Source: Candidatus Babeliales bacterium (GTDB taxonomy: Bacteria; Babelota; Babeliae; Babelales; UASB340). Taken from it: a stretch of 64,000 nt of DNA. Below the pieces are notes generated by a model. The model was not told the origin of the DNA and did not search any database. It worked only from the letters and a program-made list of their open reading frames with translations. Within the stretch, counting starts at the first letter, position 1. Each line of letters begins with the position of its first letter. Below are positions 3,850 through 38,275 of the stretch, in pieces. Made by a program: the position numbers and the translations under genes. Location: positions 12,265 to 76,264 of the forward strand of contig JAGLWI010000003.1 of NCBI GenBank assembly GCA_023133515.1, read 5' to 3'.

Positions 3850-3851
3850 AA

Positions 3852-12293: not shown

Positions 12294-12300
12294 TATTGAT

Positions 12301-13725
12301 ATGAAAGATAATTTTATTTTATTGGTTTTTTCACTACTTTTTATATTTTTTTCTTTTGTTTTATATTTTAGTATTTCATCTATTCCTCCTTATCAAGATA
12401 TAGATTCTAAGGCATATATTTATAATGCAAAAAGAATTTATGATAACAATCTTTTTTCATCAGTAGCTAGCAAAAAAGATGATCCTTATTATGCTTTAGG
12501 ATATGCATTTTTTATTGGCTTGATATACAAATTATTTGGAATAAATAATAATTTTGTTGTTTTTATACAAATTTTATTAGCTTTATTAACAGGTTTTTTA
12601 GTTTTTAGGGCAACCAAATTTTTATTTAATAAAACAATTGCATTAATATCGTTTATATTTTTTTCTTTTAATATTGGTTTTTTGGTTTTTTCTCAATTTA
12701 TTTTGACAGAAATATTATTGACTTTTTTATTAGCATTGTTTTTTGAGCGATTTGCGTATTTTTTAAAAAAAGATAGTATTTCAAGTTTGATTCAATCTGG
12801 GTTGATATTGGGGATTTCTGTAGCAGTAAAACCTGCTGCAATATATTTTATTTTTCCTTTGTTTTTTTTGATTTTATTTATGAACCGAAGCTTTTCGGGC
12901 TTTGTAAACAAAGCCATTTTGTTGAAGTCGGAGGAGAAGTTGTCTAGCGAAGATTTATTTTTAATAAAAAATAAATTGTTTTATAAAATTAAATTAATTT
13001 TTTTTCTTTCTGTTTCTTTTTATCTTCCTATTATTGGTTATATGTTTTTTAATAAAATTAACTTTGATAATTTTAGTGTTGCTCCTTTGGCAAATGAGAA
13101 TCTTTATCTTTATCTTTTCCCAAAAGTTATTGCTTATAAAAATAATACAGATTGGATTATAGAGAAAAGAAAAATTGGTTCACTTTTAACCGGTAGTAAG
13201 TTGAATGAAAAAAGTTGGTCAAAAATAAAAGAAAAATTTTATGAATATTTTAAAAAAGACCCAATTATTTTTTTACAGATTTGGTTAAAGAATGTTTTTA
13301 AGACGTGTGTTGGTCTTTTTACAACAAATCTTAAAGTTTTGATAGAAAGAGATGTAAAAGGTGGAGATATTTCTTTTTTCAAAATGGAAGGAAATTTTTT
13401 TAAAAGAATTTTTGATTATATTACATGTGGTACAAAAAATCCTCTAATAAAAATAGTAGGTGTTTTTGAGGCTATCTGGTCAGTATTACGTTATATTTTA
13501 TGTTTGATTGCTTTATTTTTTTTAGTTTTTAAGAAAAAGTGGTTAACTTTTTTCTTTTTCTTTTTTTATTTATTTTATTTTTCAATGATTACAGGTCACG
13601 ATGGTTGTGCAAGATTTAGAATGATGTTTGAGCCTGTGTTGCTAGTTTTGGCATCATTTGGTTTGTGGGTTATAGTAAGAGCTTATATGAAAACTCAGAT
13701 AATTTTACAACGGCGTTCATCCTGA
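12301..13725 (+). CDS. Divergent GT-C-fold (PMT_2-like) membrane glycosyltransferase
   Basis: 474 aa and multi-TM. It has DIDSKAYIYNAKRI in the first loop and a C-terminal CARFRMMFEPV that echoes ARLRLPIEPF. The last codons and the TGA stop lie inside palindromic repeat copy 1. Confidence 0.65.
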   Translation: MKDNFILLVFSLLFIFFSFVLYFSISSIPPYQDIDSKAYIYNAKRIYDNNLFSSVASKKDDPYYALGYAFFIGLIYKLFGINNNFVVFIQILLALLTGFLVFRATKFLFNKTIALISFIFFSFNIGFLVFSQFILTEILLTFLLALFFERFAYFLKKDSISSLIQSGLILGISVAVKPAAIYFIFPLFFLILFMNRSFSGFVNKAILLKSEEKLSSEDLFLIKNKLFYKIKLIFFLSVSFYLPIIGYMFFNKINFDNFSVAPLANENLYLYLFPKVIAYKNNTDWIIEKRKIGSLLTGSKLNEKSWSKIKEKFYEYFKKDPIIFLQIWLKNVFKTCVGLFTTNLKVLIERDVKGGDISFFKMEGNFFKRIFDYITCGTKNPLIKIVGVFEAIWSVLRYILCLIALFFLVFKKKWLTFFFFFFYLFYFSMITGHDGCARFRMMFEPVLLVLASFGLWVIVRAYMKTQIILQRRSS

Positions 13726-13780
13726 GCTTGTCGAAAGATGAACGTGCGCATGCATCTTTCGACAAGCTCAGGATGAGCGC
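13713..13780. repeat. GC-rich palindromic intergenic element, copy 1 (REP/MITE-like)
   Basis: The arms gcgttcatcctgagcttgtcgaaagatg (13713-13740) and catctttcgacaagctcaggatgagcgc (13753-13780) are reverse complements with 1 mismatch. The spacer is 12 nt (aacgtgcgcatg). Confidence 0.9.
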
Positions 13781-13860
13781 GCAATTATATATTTTTCAAA
13801 GTTAAGTTTAAGGACACAATTTGAGTTAAATAAAAGGTTATATAAAAAAGACGGTAAAAG

Positions 13861-14928
13861 ATGTTGGATAGATATTTTATGATTCTTTGTGGTGGTGGGG
13901 GTGAAAGACTTTGGCCACTGAGTCGGAAAAAAAAACCAAAACAGTTTATTAATTTTTTAAATAATTCTTCTCTTTTAGAACAAACTATAAATCGAATAAA
14001 GCCACTTATTCAGTATAAAAAAAATTTAGGAATTATTATTAATAATAATCAATCTGATTTGATTTTAGAATCGGTATTAGAAAAAATAGGTTTTGTATTA
14101 AAAGAACCAGCTTTAAGAAATACTGCGCCAGCGGTTTTATATAGTTGTTTCCATTTAAAAAGTTTGAGTAAAGATGCAGTTGTTGTTTTCCTTCCAGCAG
14201 ATTCTTTTGTAACTGAAAATGAAAAATATTGTCATTATTTGGAAAAAGCAATTAAATATGCTTCTGAAAATGAGAAAATTGTAACTTTGGGTGTTATGCC
14301 AACTTATCCTGCAACTGGATATGGATATATTCAAGCCGGTTTAAAGGATGGAGAAAAAATAATTTGTGGGAATGTTTATGATACTTTTAAATTTCATGAA
14401 AAACCAGATTTGAAACTTGCTGAAGATTATATTCAAAAAGAAGATATGTTTTGGAATATTGCAGTTTTTATATCAAAGGTTTCTGTTTTTTTAAATGAAT
14501 TTGAAAAAAATGCTCCTTTTCTTTTTAATTCAATGAAAAATTTTTTAAATAACGATATTAAATATGAAGATATTAAAAATATTTCAATAGATTATGCAGT
14601 TATGGAAAAGAGTAAAAATGTTGCTGTTTTGCCATGTGATTTTGAATGGAGTGATGTAGGAAATTTGGAAGTTTTTTTGCGATTACAATCTAGATTATCA
14701 GAAAATAAAAATGGAATAAAAATTATAAATGTTGACTCTGAAAATAATTTAGTACATATCACAAAAAAAGAATTAAAAAAAGATAAGGCTGTTATATTTT
14801 TGGGAGTTGAGGATATTTGTTTAGTAGAAGATGATAACGTGATTTTGGTGGCAAAGAGAGGAGATGTAGAAAAAGTTAAAAAAGTTTTAAAAAAATTACG
14901 TGAAGAATCTTTAGATCAATTTCTTTAA
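13861..14928 (+). CDS. manC: Mannose-1-phosphate guanylyltransferase (NTP-transferase domain only)
   Basis: The N-terminal ILCGGGGERLWPLSRKKKPKQF matches the ManC/CpsB signature. It is 355 aa and lies immediately upstream of gmd. Confidence 0.7.
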   Translation: MLDRYFMILCGGGGERLWPLSRKKKPKQFINFLNNSSLLEQTINRIKPLIQYKKNLGIIINNNQSDLILESVLEKIGFVLKEPALRNTAPAVLYSCFHLKSLSKDAVVVFLPADSFVTENEKYCHYLEKAIKYASENEKIVTLGVMPTYPATGYGYIQAGLKDGEKIICGNVYDTFKFHEKPDLKLAEDYIQKEDMFWNIAVFISKVSVFLNEFEKNAPFLFNSMKNFLNNDIKYEDIKNISIDYAVMEKSKNVAVLPCDFEWSDVGNLEVFLRLQSRLSENKNGIKIINVDSENNLVHITKKELKKDKAVIFLGVEDICLVEDDNVILVAKRGDVEKVKKVLKKLREESLDQFL

Positions 14929-14956
14929 AGTTTAAAAAATTGATTTTAGGAATTTT

Positions 14957-16048
14957 ATGAAAAAAGCTTTGATTACGGGAATAACTGGTCAGGATGGGTC
15001 CTATTTGGCAGAGTTTTTATTAAAAAAAGGATATCAAGTTCATGGTATAAAACGTCGTTCTTCTAGTTTTAATACTTCTCGAATTGATCATATTTATCAG
15101 GATCGATATAGAATAAATAATAGAAACTTTGTTTTACATTATGGTGATTTAACTGATGCTACAAATTTAATAAGAATTATTCAGGATACTCAGCCAGATG
15201 AAATTTATAATTTAGCTGCGCAAAGTCATGTTCATGTTTCTTTTGAAACTCCAGAATACACAGCAAATTCAGATGCACTTGGAACATTAAGATTGCTTGA
15301 GGCTATCAGGATTTTAAAGCTAACCAAAAAAACCAAATTTTATCAGGCATCAACGAGTGAACTTTATGGAAAAGTTCAGCAGATTCCTCAAAATGAAAGT
15401 ACTCAATTTTATCCACGTTCACCTTATGCGGCAGCAAAACTTTATGCTTATTGGATAACCATTAATTATCGTGAGGCATATAATATTTTTGCTTGTAACG
15501 GTATTTTATTTAATCATGAGTCTGAAAGGCGTGGAGAGACTTTTGTGACAAGAAAAATTACAATAGCAGTTTCGAAAATAAAATATGGATTACAAGAAAA
15601 ACTTTTTTTAGGAAATTTGGATTCAAAAAGAGATTGGGGTTATGCAAAAGAATATGTTGAAGCAATGTGGCTTATGTTGCAACATGAAAAACCTCAGGAT
15701 TATGTTATTGCAACTGGTCAAACTCATACTGTAAGAGAGTTTGTTGAATTGGCATTTAGATTTGTTGGAAAAGAAATAATTTGGCACGGTACAGGTGTTA
15801 ATGAAAAAGGAATTGATAAAAAAACTGAAAAAGTTTTAGTTGAGATTGATCCAATTTATTTTAGACCAACAGAAGTTAATTTGTTGATTGGTGACGCAAG
15901 AAAAGTTAAAAATGATCTTGGTTGGGCTGCAAAAACATCATTTAATGATCTAGTAAAATTGATGGTTGATTATGATTTGAAACAGATTGAAAAAGATTTG
16001 AATTTAAAAATTGTAAAAAAGGTGAAGGGTGAATTTTACAGGATTTAA
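14957..16048 (+). CDS. gmd: GDP-mannose 4,6-dehydratase
   Basis: Motifs are [56 protein letters not shown] and [17 protein letters not shown]. Confidence 0.92.
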
Positions 16049-17993
16049 AATTTTTAAAAATAAATTTTTTTTAAGTTTAATTTTGTTTCTATCCATTTTT
16101 TTAATTTTTGCTTTTAGTATAAAACAATTATGGTTTAAATTAGATGATATTGGCACAATAGTTGATGGACTTATTAAAAATTGGAATGATTTTTTAAAAG
16201 TTTTTTCTACTCAATCACGTGATTTTACAGCTCCTATTAATTATAAATTTTCAAAACCAAATTTTATTTCTGCTATTTATAGGCCCTTAATAAATATTCC
16301 ATATACAATAATTTATTATTTTTTTGGTCTTGATGCATATATTTTTTATTTGTTAAATGTATTTTTTCATGCAATTAATTCCGTTTTGTTATTTTATATT
16401 TTTTCATTTTTTATGCCTGTGGGATTATCTTTTTTAGGTGGATTTCTGTTTGCATTCTATAGGGAAATGTCTTGGCTTACTTGGATTGCTATTTTAAATA
16501 ATGTACTTTCTACATTTTTTTTATTTATAACTACAATACTTTTTTTAACTTTTTTTTTAAGATCTAAAAAAGAAACTTTATGGTGTTATGATTGGAGGTA
16601 TTATCTTTCAGGGTTTACGTTATTGCTATCTTTTTTATCAAGAGAAACTCCTGTGTTTTTTTCTTTTTTTGTATTTTGTTCAATATTTTTTTTATGTAGC
16701 TATAAATATGAAAATTTTTATGAAAAAATAAAATATTCTTTTTCAAAATCATGGATTTTTTTTCTTTCAAATTTTGTTTATGTTTTAATTAGAATTTGGG
16801 CTTTTGGTTTTGAAACTTTGGATCGGACTTTTAATAATTTTTTTATTAGGTTTCCTTTTTTAAAAAATATTTTCTTAGAAAAAGCAAATGTAAAATTAGT
16901 TAATGAATTGTCTAATAATATTGTAAGTAATACTGTTGAAAATGTAAGTAAAGTGTTAAGTAGTGCAAATACAGTTAATTTAAAAAAAACTTTTTTCACA
17001 GATTTTTTTTCAGAAAAGATTATAAAGATAGAAAATTCTTTTTTTGCATGGATTAGAAGTTTGTTTTATGTAGATATTCAATCTTTTCAGGATAAAGTTT
17101 TATATTTTTTGATATTTTTATTTTTGTTGTTTTTTTTAATTTTTGCCTATAGAAAACATGGAAAAGTTTTATTAGTTTTGTTTTTAGGTTTTATATTTTT
17201 TGCTTGGCCAGGATTTTTAGCTTATCCAAATACTCGGTATATATCGTCTGTTTATCCTATTTTAATATTTACTGTTTTGTTTGGGCTTTATTTATTTTGT
17301 AGGAATTTATCAATAAAACTGATTTTTAGAAAATCTATTTCTTTTTTAATTGTTTTGTTTTTATTTGTAGTTCTTTTTGCGGGTATTAAAAAAAATCACA
17401 AGGGTTTAAATATTACTGCGGTTTCTTCCATTAAACGAAAAGAAAAATATGAAAAGTTTTTTAGAGAAAATTCATTTGATAATGGTAAGAATTTTATAGT
17501 TATAAGTTCTCCTTTTACTTCTGATATTCATAGTGTTTTTCAGTATTTTTTAAATAACTATAGTATTAAATTATCGTATGTTCTTTTTTCTACATTGGCA
17601 AATAAAGGAAGCATGGGTTGTAGGGGTGATTATAAAGTTAAAGGAGTTGAGAGTAAAATAGTTTCAGTTAAAATGGATGGTAAAAAAGGAATTAGATTAA
17701 TTTCATTGAATAAGCAACATTGTGCTTGGTGGATGAATTTCTCTGATCATCCAATCAAATGGTCAAAAAAAGAAAAAGCATATATTTGGACAGATAAAAA
17801 ATATATGGTTGATAGATGGTATGATTTTTCTATGGGAAAATTTATTATAAATGAGATGATTGGCGATAAATATGTTACTGATATAATTTTTATTTTTGAT
17901 AACATTTGGGTAGATGAAAATACGGTGTTTGTATTTTGGGATACAATGGAAGGTAAATATAAAGTTTTAAATATTGATAAGGAGATTGAATGA
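16029..17993 (+). CDS. Large polytopic membrane protein, possible GT-C-fold glycosyltransferase with a C-terminal soluble domain
   Basis: 654 aa with about 12 hydrophobic segments. An acidic [10 protein letters not shown] follows TM1. The last ~200 aa are hydrophilic. The GTG start overlaps gmd by 20 nt. Confidence 0.5.
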
Positions 17994-18199
17994 AGATTAC
18001 AAAAAGAGTGTTTTTTTTAACAATGATATCATTTTTTGTATCTACAAATTTTGTTTATTCTTATATAGATCCAGGTATGGGTAGTATGTTAATTCAACTA
18101 CTTATTGCTAGTTTTGTTGGAGCTTTATATTGTGTAAAAGTTTTTTGGAAACAGATAAAAATATTTACGGTTTCTGTTTTTAGAAAAAAAGGTAGTTAA
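17990..18199 (+). CDS. Small membrane protein (69 aa) with YIDPGMGS motif
   Basis: ATGA overlap with the upstream gene and TAATG overlap with the downstream gene suggest translational coupling. It has two hydrophobic segments. Confidence 0.5.
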   Translation: MKITKRVFFLTMISFFVSTNFVYSYIDPGMGSMLIQLLIASFVGALYCVKVFWKQIKIFTVSVFRKKGS

Positions 18200-21160: not shown

Positions 21161-21194
21161 TAAAATATTATTGGTTGTTTAAATTTGGTGTTTT

Positions 21195-22043
21195 ATGAAA
21201 AAAAATAATTTACCAGTAATGATTTTGGCTGGAGGGTTTGGTACTAGATTAAGAGAAGAGACTGAATTTATGCCAAAACCGATGGTTCCAATTGGAAACA
21301 AACCTATTTTATGGCATATTATGAAACTTTATTCTCATTATGGATTTTATCGTTTTATCATTTGTCTTGGTTACAAAGGGCATATGATAAAAGATTATTT
21401 TTTAAATTATAGATTACAGGGAATAGATTTTACTGTTAAAACTAAATTTGGAAAAATAATTGAACATCAAACAAATTGTGAAGAATGGGAAGTTACTCTT
21501 GTAGATACAGGTTTTGATTGTTATACAGGTGGTAGAATTGCTCGTGCATCAAAATATATAGATACTAAAAGTTTTTTACTTACATATGGGGATGGTGTTT
21601 CAAATGTGGATATTTTAAAACTTCTTGAATTTCACAAATCTCATGGCAAATTGGCAACATTGACAGGAGTTAATATGCCTCCACGTTTTGGTAATTTGGA
21701 AGTAAAAGATAATTCGGTTGTATCTTTTATGGAAAAAAGAAAAATTACAGAAGAATGGATAAATGGAGGTTTTTTTGTTTTAGAAAAAGATTTTTTAAAT
21801 TATCTTTCTATTGATTCTTCTTGTGTTTTAGAAAAGGATCCTTTATTTAATGCATCAAAAGATGGACAATTAATGATATATAAACATCATGGTTTTTGGC
21901 AGTGTATGGATACATTAAGAGAACGTAACATGTTAGAAGAAATGTGGAAAAGTTCTCCTCCTTGGAAAGTATGGGAAGATGAAAAAGCTGAGTATAGAAA
22001 TATTAAAAAAGTTTTTTCTCCTGATAAGCAAGCAGTTATTTAA
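21195..22043 (+). CDS. rfbF: Glucose-1-phosphate cytidylyltransferase
   Basis: Motifs are VMILAGGFGTRLREETEFMPKPMVPIGNKPILWHIMKLYSHYGF, LGYKGHMIKDYFLNY and GFWQCMDTLRE. Confidence 0.88.
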   Translation: MKKNNLPVMILAGGFGTRLREETEFMPKPMVPIGNKPILWHIMKLYSHYGFYRFIICLGYKGHMIKDYFLNYRLQGIDFTVKTKFGKIIEHQTNCEEWEVTLVDTGFDCYTGGRIARASKYIDTKSFLLTYGDGVSNVDILKLLEFHKSHGKLATLTGVNMPPRFGNLEVKDNSVVSFMEKRKITEEWINGGFFVLEKDFLNYLSIDSSCVLEKDPLFNASKDGQLMIYKHHGFWQCMDTLRERNMLEEMWKSSPPWKVWEDEKAEYRNIKKVFSPDKQAVI

Positions 22044-22088
22044 ATTCGAGTTGTTACTTTGAAATAAGTAAGTTTTAAGATAAAGTTG

Positions 22089-22157
22089 TGCGCTCATCCT
22101 GAGCTTATCGAAGGATAAAAGCGCGCTGCATTCTTCGACAAGCTCAGGATGAGCGCA
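22089..22157. repeat. GC-rich palindromic intergenic element, copy 2; plausible terminator
   Basis: The sequence is tgcgctcatcctgagcttatcgaagga ... tcttcgacaagctcaggatgagcgca. It is followed by a T-run (ttttttgtttttt). Confidence 0.9.
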
Positions 22158-22227
22158 TTTTTTGTTTTTTAAACTAGATTCTAGGTAGCAAGTTGAGTTA
22201 CATAACTAACATAGAAGTGAGGTAGTA

Positions 22228-23289
22228 ATGAAAAACTATTTTTGGAATAATAAAAATGTTTTTATTACAGGTGCTACAGGTCTTTTAGGGCCGTGGTTAA
22301 TAAAAGATTTATTAGAAAAACAAGCTAATGTTTTTGTTTTAGTACGTGATATTATTCCTTCGTCTTTATTTTTTATAGATGGGCTTGATAAAAAAACAAA
22401 TGTAATTTTTGGGGATCTTTTAGATTTTCAACTTTTACAAAGAGTTTTGAATGAGTTTGATATTGATACGGTTTTTCATTTGGGTGCACAGGCAATTGTG
22501 GGGATTGCAAATAGGTCTCCTTTATCTACTTTTAAATCAAACATAGAAGGAACTTGGAATTTACTTGAGGCTTGTAGACTTTCTCCATGGATTAAAAAAG
22601 TTATTATAGCATCAAGTGATAAAGCATATGGTGAACATGAAAAATTACCTTATAAAGAAAATATTTCACTTCAAGGTAGATTTCCCTATGATGTTTCTAA
22701 AAGTTGTGTTGATTTGATTTCTCAATCTTATTTTCATACTTATAAATTACCAGTATGTGTTACTCGTTGCGGAAATTTTTTTGGTGGAGGAGATTTACAT
22801 TTAAATAGAATTGTACCTGGAACAATAAAAAGTATTTTGTATGGAAAGAATCCTATTATTCGTACAAATGGCCTTTTCGTTCGTGATTATGTTTACGTCA
22901 AAGATGTATCTGATGCTTATATAACTCTTGCTCAAAAAATGGAAAATGACTTCGTTATAGGACAATGTTTTAATTTTAGTACGGATCAACCTTTTAATGT
23001 GATAGAAATTGTTGATTTGATTTTAGATATTATGAAGTGTAATCATTTAAAACCAATTATTCAAAATCAATCTTGTAACGAGATTCCTGAGCAGAATCTT
23101 TGTTCTCAGAAAGCAAAAAATATTTTGGGGTGGGAAGCCAAATTTGGAGTTAAAGTTGGATTACAAGAAACGGTTAAGTGGTATAAAAACTTTTTTGATG
23201 AACAAAAAAATAAAATTTATATTAGTGGTAAAAGCCCTAGATGTGATTTTGGGTATACTTTAGGAAAAGAAAAATTGCGCTCATCCTGA
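22228..23289 (+). CDS. Extended-SDR NAD-dependent sugar 4,6-dehydratase/epimerase (CDP-glucose 4,6-dehydratase by position)
   Basis: Motifs are FWNNKNVFITGATGLLGPWL, SSDKAYG and YDVSKS. It follows rfbF but lacks the classical RPWQHVLEP motif. The terminal RSS-stop comes from repeat copy 3. Confidence 0.5.
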   Translation: MKNYFWNNKNVFITGATGLLGPWLIKDLLEKQANVFVLVRDIIPSSLFFIDGLDKKTNVIFGDLLDFQLLQRVLNEFDIDTVFHLGAQAIVGIANRSPLSTFKSNIEGTWNLLEACRLSPWIKKVIIASSDKAYGEHEKLPYKENISLQGRFPYDVSKSCVDLISQSYFHTYKLPVCVTRCGNFFGGGDLHLNRIVPGTIKSILYGKNPIIRTNGLFVRDYVYVKDVSDAYITLAQKMENDFVIGQCFNFSTDQPFNVIEIVDLILDIMKCNHLKPIIQNQSCNEIPEQNLCSQKAKNILGWEAKFGVKVGLQETVKWYKNFFDEQKNKIYISGKSPRCDFGYTLGKEKLRSS

Positions 23290-23343
23290 GCTTGTCGAAG
23301 GATGAAGCGCACATGCATTCTTCGATAAGCTCAGGATGAGCGC
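23277..23343. repeat. GC-rich palindromic intergenic element, copy 3
   Basis: The sequence is gcgctcatcctgagcttgtcgaaggatg - aagcgcacatg - cattcttcgataagctcaggatgagcgc. It overlaps the last 13 nt of the upstream CDS. Confidence 0.9.
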
Positions 23344-23401
23344 GTAATTAAGATAGTACAACTTAGGTTGATAAAAATAAATGCGAAATCAAAATGTTAA
23401 G

Positions 23402-29870: not shown

Positions 29871-30993
29871 TCATACATACATTGCTCCAATCAATAGAGA
29901 AAAATGGAAGGTTTTTGCAAAACTTTATTCTGATTTTCAAATAAAAGTTTTAATTCCTAAAATTTGGCCAGCAAATTTATTCACAATACATTCAGGTGAT
30001 TTGTCATCTGATAATGATCAAAATTGTGAATTTGTGGCTTTGAATACTTTTAAAAATGGTAATGAAGTTTTATATGGATATAAATTTTTTGAATTAATAA
30101 AACTTTTAAAAGAATTTAAGCCGGATTTGATTCATGTAGAACAAGGAGATAGTGCATTTTCTTATTTTCAGTCAATTTTTCTTTCAAAAATATTTTGTCC
30201 AAAAGCTAAATTTACTTTTTTTACTTGGGTTAATTGGGAAGAAAAACGTTCATGGAAATATAAATTTTTTTGGAAATTTATAGAAAGATTTAATCTTTTT
30301 TTTACCAATGGTGCTTTTGTTGGAAATCAAGATGCAAAAAAAATATTACAAGATAAGAATTTTAAAAAGCCAATTGAAGTTTTACATCAACTTGGTGTAA
30401 ATAAAAAATTTTTTTATCCAGCAAAGCATGAAAATAAAAGTAAAAAAAAATATATAGGTTATATAGGTAGGCTTATAAAAGAAAAGGGAATTTTTACTTT
30501 AATTGATGCATTTGTGTTAATTAAAAAGAAATTTTGTAATTGGAATTTATTGATTGTTGGAGATGGAAAAGATAAAAAAGATTTTGTTAATTATGTTTGT
30601 AAAAAAAAATTGATGGATCGTATTGAGTTTAGACCACCTGTTTGTCATGAAGAAGTTGTGTCAATTTTTCATCAGATTGAAATTTTTGTTTTACCTTCTT
30701 ACGATATAGAAAAATGGCGAGAGCAATTTGGTCATGTTTTAATTGAAGCTATGTCTTGCAAAGTTCCTGTTATAGGAAGCACTGGAGGTTATATTCCAAA
30801 TGTTATTGGAGATGCAGGATTAATTTTTGAACAAAAAAACGAAAAAAAATTAGCCAAATGTTTAAATATTTTTATGAGGGATGAGAAAATAAGAAAAACA
30901 TTTGGTCAAAAAGGATATTCAAGGTTTGAGTTAAATTTTTCTTACAATATAATTGCAAAAAAGACTTTTTCTTTTTGGAATAAATTATGTTAG
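29851..30993 (+). CDS. GT4-family glycosyltransferase
   Basis: The motif is EQFGHVLIEAMSCKVPVIGSTGGYIPNVIGDAGLIF. Confidence 0.75.
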   Translation: MKILVISHTYIAPINREKWKVFAKLYSDFQIKVLIPKIWPANLFTIHSGDLSSDNDQNCEFVALNTFKNGNEVLYGYKFFELIKLLKEFKPDLIHVEQGDSAFSYFQSIFLSKIFCPKAKFTFFTWVNWEEKRSWKYKFFWKFIERFNLFFTNGAFVGNQDAKKILQDKNFKKPIEVLHQLGVNKKFFYPAKHENKSKKKYIGYIGRLIKEKGIFTLIDAFVLIKKKFCNWNLLIVGDGKDKKDFVNYVCKKKLMDRIEFRPPVCHEEVVSIFHQIEIFVLPSYDIEKWREQFGHVLIEAMSCKVPVIGSTGGYIPNVIGDAGLIFEQKNEKKLAKCLNIFMRDEKIRKTFGQKGYSRFELNFSYNIIAKKTFSFWNKLC

Positions 30994-32237
30994 TCGTCGT
31001 AAATTGTTTCAGTCATAAATTTTCTTGTTTTTGTTTGATCAGGATCTAAATCAATTTTCCATTTTGTTACAATTACATTATTTCCTAAGAAATTGATTAC
31101 TGTTAAATGATTTGAGATATTTATATTCCAAAATAATGATCTTATGTTATTTGAAGGACTTTTTAAGATTTTTAAAATTTCTTTAGATTCAACATTCCAA
31201 ATTTTTATTACATCAGAATCATATGATGAAGATGCCAAAATATTTTTATATGCATTGTTCCATGATAAATTTTTAATAACATTAGAATTGAATGTATTTA
31301 ATGTTATTAGATGTTGATATTTTTGCATTATTTTTATATTTCCTTTGTTATTACTTATTGCAAAAATATTTGCATTTAAAGGATTTAATTCAAATAAATC
31401 ATTTTCTTGTTTTTTTATAATTATGTTTCTTAAATCATTGATTTCTAAATCTTCTTCAACATACCATCCTTGTTCTTCATAATAATTTGAATTTTTATTA
31501 AGTTTTGGATCTATTATTTCTATGAATTTATCATGTATTATTATGATTTCATTTCCTTTTTTACCCCACATTAGTTTATTTGAACTTAATGTTGTTTTGA
31601 ATTTTAAAGTTATTGCTTTTTTTATTGAGTTGAAATCAAAAATTTTTATTTTTCCTTTTTCAAAAACTGCTGCAATTAAATCTCTTTTAGTTGGATGCCA
31701 TGATAAATCAATTATCGATTTTGAAGATTGTATTTTTTTTATGAAAGTTATTTTATTTCTTAATTGGCAGATAAAAATGGTGTTTTCTTTTGTTGATATT
31801 GCGAATAAATCTGAAAATTGTGGATGATAAGATATACAAGAAATTTGTTGATCGTTTAAAATTTGTTTTTTTGATCTAGTATCCCAGATAGCAAGATTTT
31901 CTTTGTCATGATATTTTGCTGCTAAGATATGACTGTTTTTTTCATTTAAAAATATTTTTGTTACTAATGAATTATTATTTTTTTTGTCGGATAGAACAAT
32001 TAGAGGTTCTTTTTTATCAACATTCCAAATAACAATTTTTTCTCCATTGTGCCAACAATTATTGGTAGTATCATATGCTACAGCGATAAAATTTGGATTT
32101 TTTTTATTTATTGTGACACATATTGGTTTTAGATTTCTAAAATTTAAATTTTTTTTAATTGATTTAGAATATATTGAATTATTATGAGAAAACACATATG
32201 TAAAAAATACTAAACATGTAATTATTTTTTTTATCAT
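30990..32237 (-). CDS. Secreted WD40/beta-propeller repeat protein (eukaryote-like)
   Basis: The N-terminus is a signal-like MIKKIITCLVFFTYVFSHNNSIYS. Repeated blocks end in IWNV, IWDT, IKIFD and IKIWNV, e.g. LSWNNAYKNILASSSYDSDVIKIWNV. Confidence 0.65.
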   Translation of the reverse strand: MIKKIITCLVFFTYVFSHNNSIYSKSIKKNLNFRNLKPICVTINKKNPNFIAVAYDTTNNCWHNGEKIVIWNVDKKEPLIVLSDKKNNNSLVTKIFLNEKNSHILAAKYHDKENLAIWDTRSKKQILNDQQISCISYHPQFSDLFAISTKENTIFICQLRNKITFIKKIQSSKSIIDLSWHPTKRDLIAAVFEKGKIKIFDFNSIKKAITLKFKTTLSSNKLMWGKKGNEIIIIHDKFIEIIDPKLNKNSNYYEEQGWYVEEDLEINDLRNIIIKKQENDLFELNPLNANIFAISNNKGNIKIMQKYQHLITLNTFNSNVIKNLSWNNAYKNILASSSYDSDVIKIWNVESKEILKILKSPSNNIRSLFWNINISNHLTVINFLGNNVIVTKWKIDLDPDQTKTRKFMTETIYDD

Positions 32238-32417
32238 GAGCTGTCTCCTTTTTTAAAAAAAGTTGTTTATAAAGTTCTCAAAAAATTATAACGAATAAAT
32301 GTTTTTTTTCACAAGAAAAAATAAATAGAATAAATTTTTTGTTTGTTGTACACAAAAACTTTTTATCATGTAATACTTGTTTTAGATTGTATTTTTTAAT
32401 CTTAAAAGGAGAACTTT

Positions 32418-33815
32418 GTGAGAAAGATTGTAGTGATAGGAGCAGGATATGTTGGTCTTGTAACTGGCGCTTGTTTTGCTCAAAAAGGAAATTTTGTAAT
32501 TATTGTGGAGAAAGATGAGAATAAAGTTAAATCCTTACTAAATGGAATTGTTCCTTTTTATGAACCTGGTCTTAATCAGTTAGTTACAAAATCTATAAGA
32601 GAAAATAATATTATTTTTGTAAACAATATTTTTCAAGCTATAAAACAAAATCCTCAAGTTATTTTTTCGTGTGTTGGAACCCCATCTCTTCCAGATGGCA
32701 GTGCTGATTTAAGTGCTGTATGGACAGTTTCTCGAGAAGTTGGAAAATTAATAGATGATTATATTCTTTTTATAAATAAATCTACTGTTCCTGTTGGTAC
32801 TGCAAAAAAAGTAAAAAAAATTATAAAAGAAGAACTTGATTTACGGGGTTTAAGTTTTGATTTCGATGTTGCATCTAATCCAGAATTTTTAAAAGAAGGT
32901 GATGCTTTAAATGATTTTTTAATGCCAGATCGTGTAGTGATTGGAGTTGAATCTAAAAAAGCAGAACAAATTTTGAGCGATTTGTACAAGCCATTTTTAA
33001 AAAATCAAGATCAATTATTATTTATGAATTCAGAATCGGCAGAACTTACAAAATATGCTTCTAATTCTATGCTTGCGACAAGAATTAGTTTTATGAATCA
33101 GCTTGCGCTATTTGCAGATAAAGTTGGTGCTGATATTGAACAAGTAAAATTAGGGATGGCAAAAGATAAGCGGATCGGAGTTTCTTTTTTGAATGCAGGA
33201 ATAGGTTATGGTGGAAGTTGTTTTCCTAAAGATGTAAAAGCACTTATTCATATGGGTAAAGAGCACAATCACAATATGAGTTTAATTAAATCTGTTGATG
33301 TTGTTAATGATAATCAGAGAGATTGGTTTGTTAATCAAATTTTTAATTATTATAAAGATGAAATTTCAAAAAAAACCATTGGAATTTGGGGGCTTGCTTT
33401 TAAGCCTGAGACTGATGATATTAGATGTGCACCTTCGATTGATGTGATTGAAAACCTTTTATGTGAGGATGCAAAGGTTGTGGTTTATGATCCTGTTGCC
33501 TCTGAAAATATAAAAAAAATATTTAAAGATACAGTTGTTTTTGTAAATAGAGCATTAGATGTTTTAAGGGAATCTGATTGTTTGGTTATTCTTACCGAAT
33601 GGAAGGAATTTTTAAAACATAAACCTAATGATTTTAAAATTCTAAAGGATAAAGTTGTTTTTGATGGACGTAACTGTTTTAAGCCAATTGATATGAAAAA
33701 CAATGGGATAAAATATTTTACGGTTGGGCGAAATAGTGTTTGTGAATTTTCAAATGATTTTTGCATAGGATTTAAATCTGGTTTTGATAATAAAAAGTTA
33801 AAAAAAATTAATTAA
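32418..33815 (+). CDS. ugd: UDP-glucose 6-dehydrogenase
   Basis: Motifs are KIVVIGAGYVGLVTGACFA, NPEFLKEG and GYGGSCFPKDVKAL. The GTG start is preceded by AAGGAG at 32406-32411. Confidence 0.9.
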   Translation: MRKIVVIGAGYVGLVTGACFAQKGNFVIIVEKDENKVKSLLNGIVPFYEPGLNQLVTKSIRENNIIFVNNIFQAIKQNPQVIFSCVGTPSLPDGSADLSAVWTVSREVGKLIDDYILFINKSTVPVGTAKKVKKIIKEELDLRGLSFDFDVASNPEFLKEGDALNDFLMPDRVVIGVESKKAEQILSDLYKPFLKNQDQLLFMNSESAELTKYASNSMLATRISFMNQLALFADKVGADIEQVKLGMAKDKRIGVSFLNAGIGYGGSCFPKDVKALIHMGKEHNHNMSLIKSVDVVNDNQRDWFVNQIFNYYKDEISKKTIGIWGLAFKPETDDIRCAPSIDVIENLLCEDAKVVVYDPVASENIKKIFKDTVVFVNRALDVLRESDCLVILTEWKEFLKHKPNDFKILKDKVVFDGRNCFKPIDMKNNGIKYFTVGRNSVCEFSNDFCIGFKSGFDNKKLKKIN

Positions 33816-33835
33816 ATTCGTTTTTGAAGAGTAAC

Positions 33836-33879
33836 GATTTTTACTTTTTGAATAAATGATTTTTACTTTTTGAATAATA
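33836..33879. repeat. 22-bp tandem direct duplication (x2)
   Basis: gatttttactttttgaataaat (33836-33857) is followed by gatttttactttttgaataata (33858-33879). The pair lies 15 nt upstream of repeat copy 4. Confidence 0.85.
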
Positions 33880-33894
33880 GGATAATTAATTACT

Positions 33895-33926
33895 CGCTCA
33901 TCCTGAGCTTGTCGAAGGATGAGCGC
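33895..33926. repeat. Collapsed copy (copy 4) of the palindromic element
   Basis: In cgctcatcctgagcttgtcgaaggatgagcgc the left arm runs directly into the right-arm terminus. This forms a 9-bp stem (cgctcatcc/ggatgagcg) with a 13-nt loop. Confidence 0.8.
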
Positions 33927-33945
33927 TATTTTCTGTAGTTTTAAT

Positions 33946-35157
33946 ATGAAAAGTAATAAAAAAAAAATTCTTTATATTCATCATGGAAAAGGGTTAGGAG
34001 GAGCTCCTCTTAGTCTTTTATATCTAATTGAAGGACTTAATAAAAATATATATGATCCTGTTGTTTTATTTTTACATAATTCTGAGGCAATGGATCTTTA
34101 TAAATCTAGAGGGATTAATGTTGAAGGTCCTGTAGATATTTTGGATTTTCCTCATTCTAAAATTAGATGGTATAGATTATATCATCCACATCTTTTTTTT
34201 AAGTCAATTTTTGGGTCGTTAAAAATTTTACATAATGTTGCTGATTTTTGGTATAAAAAAATTAAACCTGATTTGGTTCATCTTAATACAAGCTCATTGA
34301 GTGCTTGGGCTTCGGTTGCTTACAAAAAAAATATTCCTGTTGTGTGGCACATTCGAGAACCATTATCAGATGGATATTTTGGAATTCGCAAAAAACTTAT
34401 AACAAATTTTGTAAAAAAATATTCAACAGTTATTATGCCAATTTGTAAAAATGATTCAAAACCATGGAAGAATAACAAAAAGGTTTGTGTTGTTTATAAT
34501 TCTGTTGATGAAAAAATTTTTGATAAAAATATATTAGTGAAAGATTTTTTGATTGAAAAAAAATTATCAAAATTTGTTCCAAAAATTTTATTTTTAGGGG
34601 GATTATCTAAAGAAAAAGGAACATTGGTTATTTTTGAAATATTTAGAAGATTATTGAATGTTTTACCTCAAGCAAAATTATTGATAGCAGGTTATTTTGA
34701 TTTATCATTAAAAAATGTTTTTAATTTAAAACGTTATTTTCCATCACAACGTTACAAGATTAAAGTTAAAAAAATATTAGGACAGGTAGAAAAATCAGTT
34801 TTATTTTTAGGTTCTGTAAAAAATGTTTCTCAAGTTATTGCTGCAAGTGATGTTATAATCGTTCCTTCGACTGTTGGGCATTTTGCAAGACCAGTTATTG
34901 AAGCCGGTTTTATGTCCAAACCTGTAGTTGTAACTAATCTTTTACCATTAGATGAGCTTGTTATAAATGGTAAAACAGGATTTTTAATTAATAAAAATGA
35001 TTATAAAGTTTGGATTGAAAAATTACATACTTTATTAATCAATAAAAAATTTAATGAAAAAATGGGAGAAAAGGCTTTTGAGTATTGTGTTAACAAATTT
35101 AATGTAGAAGATCAGGTTAAAAAAGTTGAGGATATTTATAAAAATATATTGCTTTAA
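33946..35157 (+). CDS. GT4-family glycosyltransferase
   Basis: The protein starts MKSNKKKILYIHHGKGLGGAP and contains GHFARPVIEAGFMSKPVVVTNLLPLDELVINGKTGF. The in-frame ATG at 33919 lies inside the repeat and is judged spurious. Confidence 0.75.
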   Translation: MKSNKKKILYIHHGKGLGGAPLSLLYLIEGLNKNIYDPVVLFLHNSEAMDLYKSRGINVEGPVDILDFPHSKIRWYRLYHPHLFFKSIFGSLKILHNVADFWYKKIKPDLVHLNTSSLSAWASVAYKKNIPVVWHIREPLSDGYFGIRKKLITNFVKKYSTVIMPICKNDSKPWKNNKKVCVVYNSVDEKIFDKNILVKDFLIEKKLSKFVPKILFLGGLSKEKGTLVIFEIFRRLLNVLPQAKLLIAGYFDLSLKNVFNLKRYFPSQRYKIKVKKILGQVEKSVLFLGSVKNVSQVIAASDVIIVPSTVGHFARPVIEAGFMSKPVVVTNLLPLDELVINGKTGFLINKNDYKVWIEKLHTLLINKKFNEKMGEKAFEYCVNKFNVEDQVKKVEDIYKNILL

Positions 35158-35172
35158 ATTTAATTATTAAAT

Positions 35173-36927
35173 ATGAATTTTATTAAAAAATTAAGTCGAT
35201 TATTATCAAGAAGAGAAAAAAAGATAATAATTTTTTTATTTTTTGTTTCTATTTTTGTTTCTTTAATGGAGACGTTTAGCCTTTCTTTAATTATGTTATT
35301 TGCAACTGTTGCTACTAATTTTAGTAATATTAATAGTAATAAGTATTATCAATATTTTTACTCATTTTTTAGATGTAATCACCATTATCAATTTGTAATG
35401 ATAATGGGGTCTTTTTTAATAGTCTTTTATTTTTTTAGGGGTGGAGTTATAACTTTTTTTTCATATCTTCAAAGTAGATTTTCTCAAAATAGATTTAAGA
35501 GTTTTGCGTTTAGATTTTTTCAAAATTATTTGAATTTTGAATATAAAGATTTTACTTCCAGTCACCCTGCAAAAATAAGTAGAGTTATAACTGGAGATGC
35601 AGCTCAGGTTACTTCTATTATTTCTGCAATGATGATGATTTGTTCAGAATCTTTAACTGTGATTTTTATATATTTTAGCTTATTGTATGTTAATTGGAAA
35701 ATGACTTTTGTTTTAACAGTTCTTTTAAGTGTAAAAGTTTTTTTTATAGTAAAAACATTTTCTAAAAGATTAGAAAACTTAGGAAAAGAGAGCCGTAAAT
35801 TAAGTATAAAGTTAGGCAAAGTTTTTGGAGAATCCTTTAGAAATTTTAAATTGATAAAACTTCTTTCTAATGAAAAACCGATATTAAAAAGTTTTGAGAT
35901 GGCTAGTTGGGGACTTGTAAAAGCAAACATATTAAATGCTGTTTTGCAAAATTTACCAAGAATTATTTTAGAGACTTTGGGTTTTTCTATTTTGATATCA
36001 TTAATAATGTATGTTGTTTACACATATAATGATGCTACTCGAGTTATTCCTATAATTACGATGTATGCATTTGCTTTTTATAGATTTTTGCCATCAATAA
36101 ATAAGATGCTTACTTCTTATAATCAAATAAGGTTTAATAAATCAGCAATTGATGGAATTCAGGAGTTTTTAGTTTATGATTTGGAAGATTTAGGAAATGA
36201 TAATGTTAATTTTACTAAAAATATAGAATTAAAAAACATTTCTTTTAGTTATGATGAAAATAATAAAATATTAAATAAAGTAAATCTTAAAATAACAAAG
36301 GGTCAAAGAACTGCTTTTATTGGTGAAAGTGGGGCAGGAAAAAGTACTATTGCTGATATTATTATGGGACTTTATAGGCCAGAAGAAGGATCAATTTTTA
36401 TTGATGGTAAAAAATTAGATAGAAAAAATTTAAAGGAATGGCGTAAAAAAATAGGATATATTCCTCAACAGATTTATCTTTTTGATGGTACTGTAGCTGA
36501 AAATATTGTTTTTGGTCGTGAGTATAATGAAAATAAAGTTATAGAGGTTTTGAAGAAAGCTAATATTTATGATTTTTTGTTAACTCAAGGTGGAATTTAT
36601 TCAAAAACTGGTGAAAGTGGAATTAAATTGAGTGGTGGTCAGGTACAAAGAATAGCTATAGCGAGAGCTTTATATTCTAATCCACAGGTGTTGGTTTTGG
36701 ATGAGGCTACTTCGGCTCTTGATAATGAAACTGAAACAAAAATTATGAATGAAATTTATAACTTGGAAAGAGATAAAACTTTAATTATTATTGCTCACAG
36801 ATTAAGTACAGTTGAAAGATGTGAAACGATTTATAAAATTGATAGTAAAAAAATTACTTTGGTTGAAGATTTGTATGAATTATATAATAAAAAAAGTGAT
36901 AAAAATATAAAACAAGTACAAGCATGA
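35173..36927 (+). CDS. ABC exporter, fused permease/ATPase (MsbA/PglK-like)
   Basis: It has 6 N-terminal TM segments, Walker A GESGAGKST, signature LSGGQVQRIAIARAL and Walker B LVLDEATSALD. Confidence 0.88.
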   Translation: MNFIKKLSRLLSRREKKIIIFLFFVSIFVSLMETFSLSLIMLFATVATNFSNINSNKYYQYFYSFFRCNHHYQFVMIMGSFLIVFYFFRGGVITFFSYLQSRFSQNRFKSFAFRFFQNYLNFEYKDFTSSHPAKISRVITGDAAQVTSIISAMMMICSESLTVIFIYFSLLYVNWKMTFVLTVLLSVKVFFIVKTFSKRLENLGKESRKLSIKLGKVFGESFRNFKLIKLLSNEKPILKSFEMASWGLVKANILNAVLQNLPRIILETLGFSILISLIMYVVYTYNDATRVIPIITMYAFAFYRFLPSINKMLTSYNQIRFNKSAIDGIQEFLVYDLEDLGNDNVNFTKNIELKNISFSYDENNKILNKVNLKITKGQRTAFIGESGAGKSTIADIIMGLYRPEEGSIFIDGKKLDRKNLKEWRKKIGYIPQQIYLFDGTVAENIVFGREYNENKVIEVLKKANIYDFLLTQGGIYSKTGESGIKLSGGQVQRIAIARALYSNPQVLVLDEATSALDNETETKIMNEIYNLERDKTLIIIAHRLSTVERCETIYKIDSKKITLVEDLYELYNKKSDKNIKQVQA

Positions 36928-36950
36928 TTTTTATTTAGATAGTTTTAAAT

Positions 36951-38132
36951 ATGAATAAATATTCGAAAATTTATGTAGCTGGACATCAAGGTCTTGTAGG
37001 TTCATCAATTTTAAGAGTGTTAGAAAAAAATGGTTTTAAAAATATAATTACAAAATCATTTAATGAACTTGATCTAAGAAATCAAGAATTTACTAATAAA
37101 TTTTTCAAAAAAGAAAAACCAGAATATGTTTTTTTGGCTGCAGCTAAAGTTGGTGGAATACTTGCTAATAATACTTATAAGGCTGAATTTATTTATGATA
37201 ATTTAATGATTTCGGCAAATGTAATTAATTCTGCTTATAAATTTGGTGTAAAAAAACTTATAAATTTAGGTTCCTCTTGTATTTATCCAAAACTTGCACC
37301 TCAACCTTTAAAAGAAGAGTATATTCTTTCTGATTATTTAGAACCAACCAATGAATCTTACGCAATTGCAAAAATATCTGCTATAAAGTTGTGCAGATAT
37401 TATAATGAGCAATATGGTACAAATTTTATATCTGTTATGCCAACAAATCTTTATGGACCTTACGATAATTTTAATTTAGAAACGGCGCATGTTCTTCCTG
37501 CTTTTATAAGAAAGTTTCATTTAGCAAAAATTTTAAGAAATAATGATTTGGAATTATTAAAAAAAGATTTGATAACTTATTCATTTGGTTATGGATTTGA
37601 TGAAATAAACCTTCGCCACGCTCATCCTGCCGTGCACACCGTAGCGTTTTGCGAAGGTTGTGAGTGCCGCACTTTGTGCGGTGTATTGAGTGATGATTCT
37701 GTAATAAAAAAATTACAAAAAATAGGGATTACCGCAGATTATGTAAAATTATGGGGAACAGGTTCTGCTTTTCGTGAATTTTTGTATGTAGATGAGATTG
37801 CTGATGTTCTTTTATTTTTAATGCAAAATTATGATTATAAAGATATAGGAGAGATTATAAATGTTGGTACCGGTCAAGATATACGAATAAAAGATTTAGC
37901 TAAATTGATAAAAAATATAGTTGGTTTTGAAGGTAAAATTGAATTTGATGTTACTAGTCCAGATGGTACTCCTAAAAAATTATTAGATGTATCAAAAATA
38001 AATAAATTAGGTTGGAAACATAAAATTAATTTAGAAGATGGATTGAAAAAAGTTTATTCATGGTATTTGAATAATTTGAATAAAGAAGATGATAAAGATA
38101 AGACAAGGGGTGTTTTTACAATAAGAACTTAA
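36951..38132 (+). CDS. fcl: GDP-L-fucose synthase (GDP-4-keto-6-deoxymannose 3,5-epimerase/4-reductase) with an internal insert
   Basis: Motifs are IYVAGHQGLVGSSI, LAAAKVGGI, LGSSCIYPK, YAIAKI, MPTNLYGP and LWGTGSAFREFLYVDE. At 393 aa it is longer than the ~320-aa classical enzyme. Confidence 0.85.
   Translation: MNKYSKIYVAGHQGLVGSSILRVLEKNGFKNIITKSFNELDLRNQEFTNKFFKKEKPEYVFLAAAKVGGILANNTYKAEFIYDNLMISANVINSAYKFGVKKLINLGSSCIYPKLAPQPLKEEYILSDYLEPTNESYAIAKISAIKLCRYYNEQYGTNFISVMPTNLYGPYDNFNLETAHVLPAFIRKFHLAKILRNNDLELLKKDLITYSFGYGFDEINLRHAHPAVHTVAFCEGCECRTLCGVLSDDSVIKKLQKIGITADYVKLWGTGSAFREFLYVDEIADVLLFLMQNYDYKDIGEIINVGTGQDIRIKDLAKLIKNIVGFEGKIEFDVTSPDGTPKKLLDVSKINKLGWKHKINLEDGLKKVYSWYLNNLNKEDDKDKTRGVFTIRT
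37609..37682. repeat. GC-rich in-frame insert within fcl, related to the palindromic element
   Basis: It shares cgctcatcctg (37618-37628) and ttgcgaagg (37648-37656) with the element arm. It contains the hairpin ccgcac-ttt-gtgcgg (37666-37680) and encodes RHAHPAVHTVAFCEGCECRTLCGV. Confidence 0.6.
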
Positions 38133-38171
38133 AGTAGAAAATTGAAATGCGGTGTTTGTTATGAGTTCTTT

Positions 38172-38215
38172 ATAAAATTTTATATATCTCCGCATAAAAT
38201 TTTATATATCTCCGC
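38172..38215. repeat. 22-bp tandem direct duplication (x2) abutting repeat copy 6
   Basis: ataaaattttatatatctccgc occurs twice (38172-38193 and 38194-38215). The second unit's ccgc forms the first bases of the palindromic element. Confidence 0.85.
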
Positions 38216-38275
38216 TCATCCTGAGCTTGTCGAAGGATGTAGTGTTGTATCCTTCGACAAGCTCAGGATGAGCGC
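38212..38275. repeat. GC-rich palindromic intergenic element, copy 6
   Basis: Arms are cgctcatcctgagcttgtcgaaggat (38213-38238) and atccttcgacaagctcaggatgagcg (38249-38274). They are perfect complements with a 10-nt loop. Confidence 0.9.

Follow-up and report, generated by a model that had tools for sequence, protein, structure and literature searches.

GC-rich hairpin repeats in a Babeliales polysaccharide gene array belong to a phylum-spanning family positionally associated with a GIY-YIG nuclease gene

Palindromic elements in a glycosyltransferase gene array

The window considered here, a stretch of 64,000 nucleotides from a Candidatus Babeliales bacterium (GenBank assembly GCA_023133515.1, contig JAGLWI010000003.1, forward strand positions 12,265 to 76,264), holds a long array of glycosyltransferase and sugar-nucleotide genes encoded nearly all on the same strand, into which five short GC-rich palindromic elements are interspersed. 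Four of these are doublets, in which two inverted arms surround a short spacer, and the fifth is a singlet formed by one arm (Table 1). All five are situated between same-strand genes, 20-80 bp upstream of the next start, and all fall within 25 kb; none occurs in the remaining ~57 kb of an 82-kb stretch made up of the window and ~9 kb on each side. An earlier reading of the window from its letters alone (the original prediction) had proposed the doublets as a family of palindromes resembling repetitive extragenic palindromic (REP) sequences or miniature inverted-repeat transposable elements (MITEs), and this proposal is borne out. The 28-nt arm consensus given there, searched with up to 3 mismatches, yields 9 matches in the window, namely two in each doublet and one in the singlet, versus 0 in 100 dinucleotide-preserving shuffles, and the same arms recur in other genomes. 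The doublets lie where they had been placed, with the limits of the second trimmed from 22089-22157 to 22090-22156. An 18-nt core (CATCCTGAGCTTRTCGAA) matches exactly at the same nine arms.

Within the doublets the arms are 93-100% complementary across spacers of 8-12 nt, and when folded as RNA the four doublets reach -50 to -53 kcal/mol (z = -10 to -12). The contrast in composition with the AT-rich host is as described before: the elements have 53-58% G+C against 21-35% in the surrounding genes, whose G+C at third codon positions (GC3) is ~0.14. The same element sequence is present in the NCBI metagenome-assembled genome, in an ENA scaffold and in Logan contigs, three independent assemblies of the same sample, and is therefore not an assembly artefact. 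The sample is a metagenome from a cold seep in the South China Sea, and in the NCBI genome (GCA_030631185.1) the window corresponds to positions 70345-134344 of contig DAOVLQ010000002.1. Two short-read contigs from this sample (L003 and L004) start or stop exactly within arms (window 33897 and 38242), that is, assemblers break at the repeat.

Table 1. Coordinates and predicted folding of the palindromic elements of the window and of an adjoining tandem duplication
Feature	Positions	Strand	Left arm	Spacer	Right arm	Arms and sequence	Predicted fold
Doublet 1	13713-13780		13713-13740	13741-13752, AACGTGCGCATG (12 nt)	13753-13780	28+28 nt, 96% complementary	RNA -52.6 kcal/mol, z -12
Doublet 2	22090-22156		22090-22117	22118-22128, AAAGCGCGCTG (11 nt)	22129-22156		RNA -49.9 kcal/mol
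Doublet 3	23277-23343		23277-23304	23305-23315, AAGCGCACATG (11 nt)	23316-23343	93% complementary	single-stranded DNA -30.5 kcal/mol
Singlet arm	33894-33926	+				tCGCTCATCC-TGAGCTTGTCGAA-GGATGAGCGc; 33 nt, self-folding, 9-10-bp stem, 13-nt loop	RNA -16.7 kcal/mol; DNA -10.6 kcal/mol, z -4.1
Tandem duplication	38172-38215	+				perfect 22-bp repeat, ATAAAATTTTATATATCTCCGC x2; second copy runs 4 nt into doublet 4
Doublet 4	38212-38275		38212-38239	38240-38247, TAGTGTTG (8-10 nt)	38248-38275	26 nt per arm perfectly complementary	RNA -53.4 kcal/mol; single-stranded DNA -33.1 kcal/mol, z -12.5

Two of the doublets contribute to the ends of coding sequences: doublet 1 supplies the TGA stop (13723-13725) of a GT-C/PMT_2-like open reading frame (ORF; 12301-13725), the last of a tandem series, and doublet 3 that (23287-23289) of a 4,6-dehydratase-like ORF (22228-23289). 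In both instances the TGA lies within CCTGAGC and is read in the same frame, so that either product ends in RSS. Doublet 2 begins 46 bp past the stop of a nucleotidyltransferase gene (21195-22043) and doublet 4 begins 79 bp past that of an epimerase gene (36951-38132), while the singlet begins 78 bp past the stop of a UDP-glucose dehydrogenase gene (32418-33815) and leaves ~20 bp to the probable start of a GT4 gene (33946). The elements had been said always to sit immediately 3' of a gene; all five do come after genes, but doublets 1 and 3 overlap the upstream ORF and the others stand 46-79 bp off. A run of T on the + (coding) strand follows only doublet 2, where ATTTTTTGTTTTTT comes directly after the element like the tail of a terminator, and the singlet (2/5), and such runs are frequent in this 25%-GC DNA.

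The arms have accumulated nine substitutions in 252 nt, all nine of them internal and from G to A or from C to T, which supports the independent decay formerly read from the arm mismatches. Given the GC3 of ~0.14, changes in this direction alone form the pattern expected of mutation pressure on unmaintained GC-rich inserts, and the low divergence implies either a recent arrival or some homogenizing process. The copies in this 25%-GC genome look like recent or now unmaintained passengers drifting towards A+T. The spacer motif GCGC..TGCAT, noticed earlier in doublets 1-3, was confirmed, the spacer of doublet 4 being unlike these, and a right-arm variant (GAAGAATG) is common to doublets 2 and 3, which bracket a single gene (that encoding the 4,6-dehydratase-like protein). 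The shared motif and the shared variant together point to copying of the window elements as whole doublets. As the 22-bp tandem duplication runs into doublet 4, it must have arisen after the element was in place, and since both copies are on the left side it is not a target-site duplication; it looks like the result of slippage at the junction following insertion. We also considered an imported cassette, and discarded this because the GC3 of the intervening genes is that of the host, so that they show no sign of recent import.

The arm as a widespread hairpin module

Comparison of 487 unique arms defines a module of ~33 nt with the consensus CCG(C/T)TC-stem-TGAGC(T/C)TGTCGAA-stem, whose ends read CCG[CT]TC and GA[GA]CGG and whose two to four loop-closing pairs change together between CC..GG, GG..CC, GC..GC and other types. 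We quantified this covariation on 150 arms taken from loci that had been picked by protein similarity and not by arm sequence. In these, 75% of the stem cells are paired as against 57% in shuffles, and the covariation score is 0.503 versus 0.183 for shuffled alignments (0/500 reach the observed value) and 0.07-0.20 for stems with shifted pairing partners. The four innermost pairs are paired in 88-97% of the arms, with 14-74 double-sided changes per pair. A covarying stem around a nearly invariant loop implies that constraint acts on a small hairpin whose 13-nt loop is conserved, and this combination would point to recognition by a specific factor. Candidate identities of the core as a hammerhead ribozyme or a tRNA-like structure were rejected by inspection. 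All nine arms of the window match the arm definition (5' CCGYTC, stem, loop TGAGCYTGTCGAA), and both arms of its doublets are of the CC..GG type, which makes each doublet a near-perfect palindrome; in most genomes convergent pairs join unlike arms.

The exact arm 26-mer (CGCTCATCCTGAGCTTRTCGAARRAT), present in 8 of the 9 window arms, recurs in at least 119 stretches of a one-genome-per-species collection, spanning at least seven phyla and 35-70% GC, against a chance expectation that we estimate at ~0.002 matches. The matches listed comprise at least 52 from Chloroflexota (mainly Dehalococcoidia/SAR202), at least 41 from Sphingomonadales (including cultured Novosphingobium, Aurantiacibacter, Tsuneonella, Erythrobacter and Citromicrobium), at least 8 from Acidobacteriota, at least 2 each from Elusimicrobia, Planctomycetota, Dependentiae and Chitinivibrionales/Chitinispirillaceae (Fibrobacterota-type), and at least 10 from other or unclassified Proteobacteria (Gamma- and Betaproteobacteria among them) and unclassified bacteria. 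A 16-nt core (CTGAGCTTGTCGAAGG) is found in at least 120 stretches of viral contigs with a G+C of 0.32-0.72, in which the flanking bases vary yet stay complementary. Both scans give lower bounds for counts and for taxonomic breadth. In other bacteria the family is clearly dispersed within single genomes; one Dehalococcoidia chromosome of 4.5 Mb (OY762251.1), for instance, carries it at 9 or more separate sites. Plasmids were examined as carriers between phyla and set aside: arms occur on only 9 large, mostly non-mobilizable replicons, and the nuclease gene described below on 4.

Besides single arms, 88 unique convergent and 53 unique divergent pairs were seen in other genomes, often of mixed arm types. 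As terminal inverted repeats the arms delimit non-coding elements of ~215 and ~245 bp in the single-cell genome of a member of the Dependentiae (35-36% GC), and hence arm pairs can carry different cargo. Each of these elements (L217 3354-3599 and L182 118-330) possesses extra, copy-specific palindromic flanks (TTTTCCAC/GTGGAAAA and CCAAT/ATTGG), and looks like an insertion into the loop of an existing hairpin; the same origin was rejected for the window copies, at which such flanks, though clear in Dependentiae, are unconvincing. A viral contig (L080 4019-4080) shows yet another arrangement, with three arms in direct tandem at a 23-nt period, unlike the inverted pairs. A filled and an empty site can be compared in two Dehalococcoidia genomes (L132 ~1470-1645 and L177 ~2397-2401), whose flanks are ~97% identical. 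The insert in L132 is a composite element of ~176-180 bp with a TGGTG direct repeat at its flanks and the terminal inverted repeat GTACCCAC..GTCATTGCGAGC, and it carries one arm of the present family together with a TGTC-ATTGCGAG-type hairpin resembling the CGTC class of REPs.

Association of the arms with a GIY-YIG nuclease gene

Three convergent arm pairs with a separation of ~335 bp each enclose an ORF of ~95 amino acids with a GIY-YIG domain (PF01541), and a tblastn search over the arm-selected loci (~2 Mb) recovered 4 GIY-YIG genes, 4/4 of which are flanked by arms on both sides within ~70 bp. For the reverse search we took 80 metagenome loci and one viral locus, selected solely because their proteins resemble the four GIY-YIG proteins, and scored arms within 150 bp of the gene in the 70 loci with enough flanking sequence. 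Arms are present on both sides in 40/70 of these, on one side in 16/70 and on neither in 14/70; inclusion of 14-nt loop variants (TGAGCGAAGTCGAA and similar) at canonical positions raises the first count to 44/70. Arms number 8.9-11 per kb up to 60 bp from the gene, compared with no more than 0.1 per kb at distances above 600 bp, which amounts to ~100-fold enrichment over background. The orientation is similarly constrained, with 39 '+' and 3 '-' arms upstream and 51 '-' and 2 '+' arms downstream. The resulting unit consists of an arm, 14-36 nt (in most units), the ORF and a second arm, mostly spans 355-390 bp, and in some cases has an ORF that ends within the downstream arm. In the doublets of the window the arms converge just as in this nuclease unit, and enclose 8-12 nt instead of the gene. 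The association is documented for one clade (52-69% identity to the queries) rather than for the UPF0213 family as a whole.

The encoded protein looks functional by sequence: the ORF is intact in 82/85 cases, and the GIY-YIG hallmark residues Y7, Y17, G19, R27, H31 and E64 are invariant or nearly so at overall identities of 44-100%. The nearest, and only, solved structures are those of the UPF0213 proteins BH0048 (1ZG2) and EF2693 (1YWL), both from structural genomics. At least 7,996 database relatives bear generic names only ('GIY-YIG nuclease family protein'), NCBIfam contains no model naming this family, and our literature search found no reported substrate, function or repeat link for bacterial UPF0213 proteins, among which are YhbQ and YazA.

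Some of the nuclease units are 81-88% identical while their flanks lack homology (L277/L292 and L212/L252), which we count in favor of movement of the unit. The same applies to a homologue in Sphingomonas paeninsulae (L331) that is located between the adjacent genes rnc and era, at a site without recognizable arms. A plasmid of Sphingomonas parapaucimobilis (L329 565-690) has an arm pair with the 14-nt loop variant TGAGCGAAGTCGAA upstream of its GIY-YIG gene, and the variant is seen at canonical positions in four metagenome loci, which hints that arm and nuclease may be diverging together. The possibility that the arm serves as a -35 box for a leaderless GIY-YIG mRNA agrees with the spacing, but was dropped as the loop variant TGAGCGAAGTCGAA is devoid of TTG.

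Possible origin of the elements and relationship to known systems

On balance we favor the view that the five elements of the window are gene-less, REPIN- or MITE-like members of this widespread hairpin repeat, whose arm pairs are likely moved by a cognate GIY-YIG nuclease acting in trans. The arm hairpins would extrude from single-stranded or supercoiled DNA, and the nuclease, encoded elsewhere, would recognize them via the conserved loop and nick them. Nicking at paired arms might then allow the segment between them to be copied or moved as a unit, as is thought for the movement of REP doublets forming hairpins (REPINs) by the RAYT transposase. The latter system, a 'REPtron' that joins this transposase to REPs, bacterial interspersed mosaic elements (BIMEs) and REPINs, was reportedly described by Nunvar in 2010, by Bertels and Rainey in 2011 and by Ton-Hoang in 2012. 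Judging from the conserved arrangement of gene and arms, the likely enzyme behind the repeat is the small GIY-YIG nuclease bracketed elsewhere by the same hairpins. The original prediction had not seen the singlet, the single arm as a hairpin with a conserved loop, the spread over phyla or this association, the last of which provides its suggestion of a non-autonomous mobile element with a concrete candidate partner. Local side effects would include the stop codons donated to two genes; if the elements are co-transcribed with the array, hairpins of about -50 kcal/mol after genes could moreover protect the upstream mRNA or partly terminate transcription. In open-access text we found neither a paper linking GIY-YIG with REP, REPIN, MITE or RAYT in prokaryotes nor the arm sequence or its peptide read-outs. 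There is a substantial chance that the hairpins and the nuclease belong to a distinct nuclease-repeat system; that together with the UPF0213 GIY-YIG gene the hairpins constitute a phylum-spanning system that has escaped recognition, the GIY-YIG counterpart of REPIN-RAYT in which a structure-selective nuclease of ~95 amino acids would recognize its own hairpin and propagate or maintain arm pairs, we put forward tentatively, as possible rather than probable.

Several observations weigh against the favored view. We observed no cleavage, excision or insertion of this arm family, and no direct repeat that could be a target-site duplication is shared by the flanks of any of the four doublets. The only clean pair of filled and empty sites, that of L132 and L177, concerns a larger composite element with different ends. 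To our knowledge no GIY-YIG enzyme catalyzes transposition alone, and the 82 kb around the elements contain no GIY-YIG gene, so that a partner enzyme in this organism is hypothetical. Many GIY-YIG units are syntenic between relatives, for instance in the order nrdR-GIY-RNA methyltransferase, a pattern more in keeping with stable inheritance of the gene than with active jumping. Recognizable arms are missing from 12-14/70 of the GIY-YIG loci and from the distant homologues in Sphingomonas paeninsulae and a Firmicute, and the queries to which the 80 metagenome loci are most closely related had been taken from loci with arms in the first place.

The main rival explanation is homing, whereby the arms, and above all the convergent doublets, are recognition or insertion sites between which a free-standing GIY-YIG homing gene has lodged; the arms would have spread by another route, and the window doublets would be unoccupied sites and not deletion derivatives. 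GIY-YIG is a classic homing-endonuclease fold, and the gene occupies exactly the place of the doublet spacer between arms of the same orientation. The varied cargo inside arm-bounded elements and the large excess of gene-less over occupied doublets would also agree with such a scenario. Yet the ~95-aa protein is a bare catalytic domain without the DNA-binding domain of known GIY-YIG homing enzymes; efficient homing should have filled many doublets, whereas only 4 GIY-YIG genes were seen against ~140 doublets; the arms beside the gene often belong to further arm pairs; and the origin of hundreds of arms is left unexplained. We therefore regard homing as rather unlikely, and the remaining explanations as less likely still.

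A second explanation would see the hairpins as kept for a host function, as terminators, mRNA 3' stabilizers or protein-binding sites that are immobile now, and the link to the nuclease as incidental. The placement of all five elements between same-strand genes just past a gene, the high stability of the predicted hairpins, the T-run after doublet 2 and the singlet, and the related hairpin within the Aggregatibacter small RNA model RF02901 are all compatible with this, as is the general location of REPs near 3' ends, where they are thought to be transcribed (PMC3733652). However, 3/5 of the elements have no T-run, a purely local role does not explain a 26-mer that is identical across phyla at non-orthologous sites, and both the fixed bracketing of the nuclease gene and the exclusive loss of G and C in the window arms are unaccounted for. 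The conserved loop with its covarying stem would again suggest a specific recognizing factor. Such a role appears unlikely as the reason for the existence of the elements.

It is more improbable that these are ordinary REPs mobilized by a RAYT, that is, by a tyrosine HUH transposase (IS200/IS605 type) whose gene lies at some other place in the genome concerned. In size, palindromy, intergenic position and the coexistence of singlets with inverted doublets of either polarity they do resemble REPs, BIMEs and REPINs (PMC3733652), but GTAG is absent from the 150 aligned arms, and REPs normally differ between genera while this core is constant across phyla. Inspection by eye, without a Pfam scan, of 33 arm-bracketed intervals revealed no recognizable transposase ORF, the only recurrent gene being that for the GIY-YIG protein. 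The previous statement that the window lacks a transposase also stands: no transposase domain appeared among the ORFs in the 82 kb that were scanned against Pfam or had precomputed Pfam hits, which in the window were those of at least 80 amino acids, with ORF 51724-53463 covered C-terminally only. Least credible of all is a DDE-type MITE in which the doublets are an internally deleted insertion sequence, since, although the arms do serve as terminal inverted repeats of the 215-245-bp non-coding elements, none of the four doublets has a direct target-site duplication, no transposase-like ORF was recognized between arms in 2 Mb of loci, and self-hairpin singlets and divergent pairs, unexpected for terminal inverted repeats, are frequent.

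Few non-coding features are as common in bacterial genomes as small palindromic repeats, and we know of an enzyme for such repeats only in the case of the GTAG-tagged REPs, namely RAYT. The other major class of REPs was without a dedicated transposase in a survey published in 2013 (PMC3733652). The family described here adds a third kind of REP-like hairpin, whose core is shared by an uncultured bacterium of 25% GC and by sphingomonads and Chloroflexota of 70% GC, and which is tied by position to a nuclease family with two solved structures and no known function. If this link is functional, it would open a direct biochemical test for UPF0213, would represent a non-HUH route to REPIN-like replicators, and would account for a sequence at which metagenome assemblies break and which gives rise to many spurious small ORFs with peptide motifs such as SLSKG, PELVEG and FDKLRM. 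A phylum-spanning nuclease-repeat system, if real, would moreover offer a function for the YhbQ/YazA-like family and hint where to seek the enzyme that other 'orphan' REP super-families lack. At the locus itself the repeat defines the ends of two genes, and its stable hairpins may divide up expression along the long polysaccharide gene array.

Other features of the region deserve mention. About 11 tandem paralogous genes for membrane proteins of ~460-480 amino acids (L325 5731-10016 and window 852-13725) form an array whose downstream end is marked by doublet 1; its last gene is the one that matches Pfam GT-C/PMT_2, and the others share the same conserved C-terminal motif and have no Pfam hit on record. 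This array is broken by two amine-oxidase-like genes (window 2233-3849 and 10791-12293). A gene for a WD40 beta-propeller protein (window 30990-32237) is on the - strand amid the glycosyltransferase array. Two genes at window 53798-56112 have a G+C of 0.33-0.35 and a GC3 of 0.23-0.24, versus ~0.26 and ~0.14 in the rest, and may be a recent import.

Among known systems, the Rickettsia palindromic elements (RPEs) are similar by description, as palindromic repeats that belong to an AT-rich genome and may reach into coding sequence, but they are longer and typically inserted in frame inside genes; nothing in the present analysis supports the likeness to them drawn in the original prediction. DDE-derived MITEs are matched by the arms that act as terminal inverted repeats of the ~215-245-bp elements and of the GIY-YIG unit; unlike MITEs, the doublets show no target-site duplication, and no transposase parent was recognized in the ~2.3 Mb of loci. 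No part of the window matches Rfam at gathering thresholds, and the relaxed-threshold matches to mir-1677, MIR2655 and snoR74 were dismissed as generic long-hairpin hits. In the model RF02901 (AaHKsRNA41, Aggregatibacter sRNA 41) the main hairpin, GCUGAgCUUGcCGAAGC...GgUUCGgCAAGcUCAgC, is a doublet of the same core as ours; the window scores 33.6-33.8 bits against a gathering threshold of 97 and lacks the flanks of this 187-nt model, and the match reflects a shared repeat embedded in that small RNA rather than the small RNA itself. The associated gene belongs to the UPF0213 family (1ZG2, 1YWL) and is related to the Slx1/YhbQ/YazA-type nucleases with a URI domain. A structure-selective nuclease would be a plausible reader of hairpin or cruciform arms. 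The bacterial proteins (~95 amino acids) are without the zinc-finger domain that a review attributes to the family.

The closest parallels are with REPs. The survey of Di Nocera, De Gregorio and Rocco (2013, PMC3733652) distinguishes two super-families, of which the GTAG-tagged REPs are associated with RAYT. The CGTC REPs are common in Alphaproteobacteria including sphingomonads, extend to several phyla (two RPE classes belong here), are mostly found as head-to-head dimers and have no dedicated transposase; their hallmarks are a CGTC/TGTC tag left unpaired, a stem of 8-9 bp that opens with AT, a loop of 4-5 nt and a CCA tail (PMC3733652). The arm family differs from these in its 13-nt loop, its closure of the stem by CC/GG, GG/CC or GC/GC and its lack of tag and CCA tail, and from the GTAG REPs in its lack of the GTAG (GT[AG]G) tag and its conserved 13-nt loop on a variable stem. 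Consequently, the arm fits neither super-family, even if it can co-occur with a CGTC-like hairpin in one composite element, as in L132. In addition, REPs are usually lineage-specific, whereas the arm core is kept across at least seven phyla and 25-70% G+C. With REPs the family nevertheless shares the position after genes, the occasional donation of stops and dimers of unlike units (PMC3733652), and its unlike arm types pair as the Y and Z REPs do in the BIMEs of E. coli. With REPIN-RAYT systems it shares short GC-rich, multi-copy and mostly intergenic hairpins that occur as singlets and as inverted doublets folding into a longer hairpin, the copying of doublets as units, populations of gene-less doublets, and a small nuclease gene, often stably inherited, between inverted hairpin copies; it differs from them in that the bracketed gene encodes a GIY-YIG protein (UPF0213) and not a tyrosine HUH transposase (PF01797).

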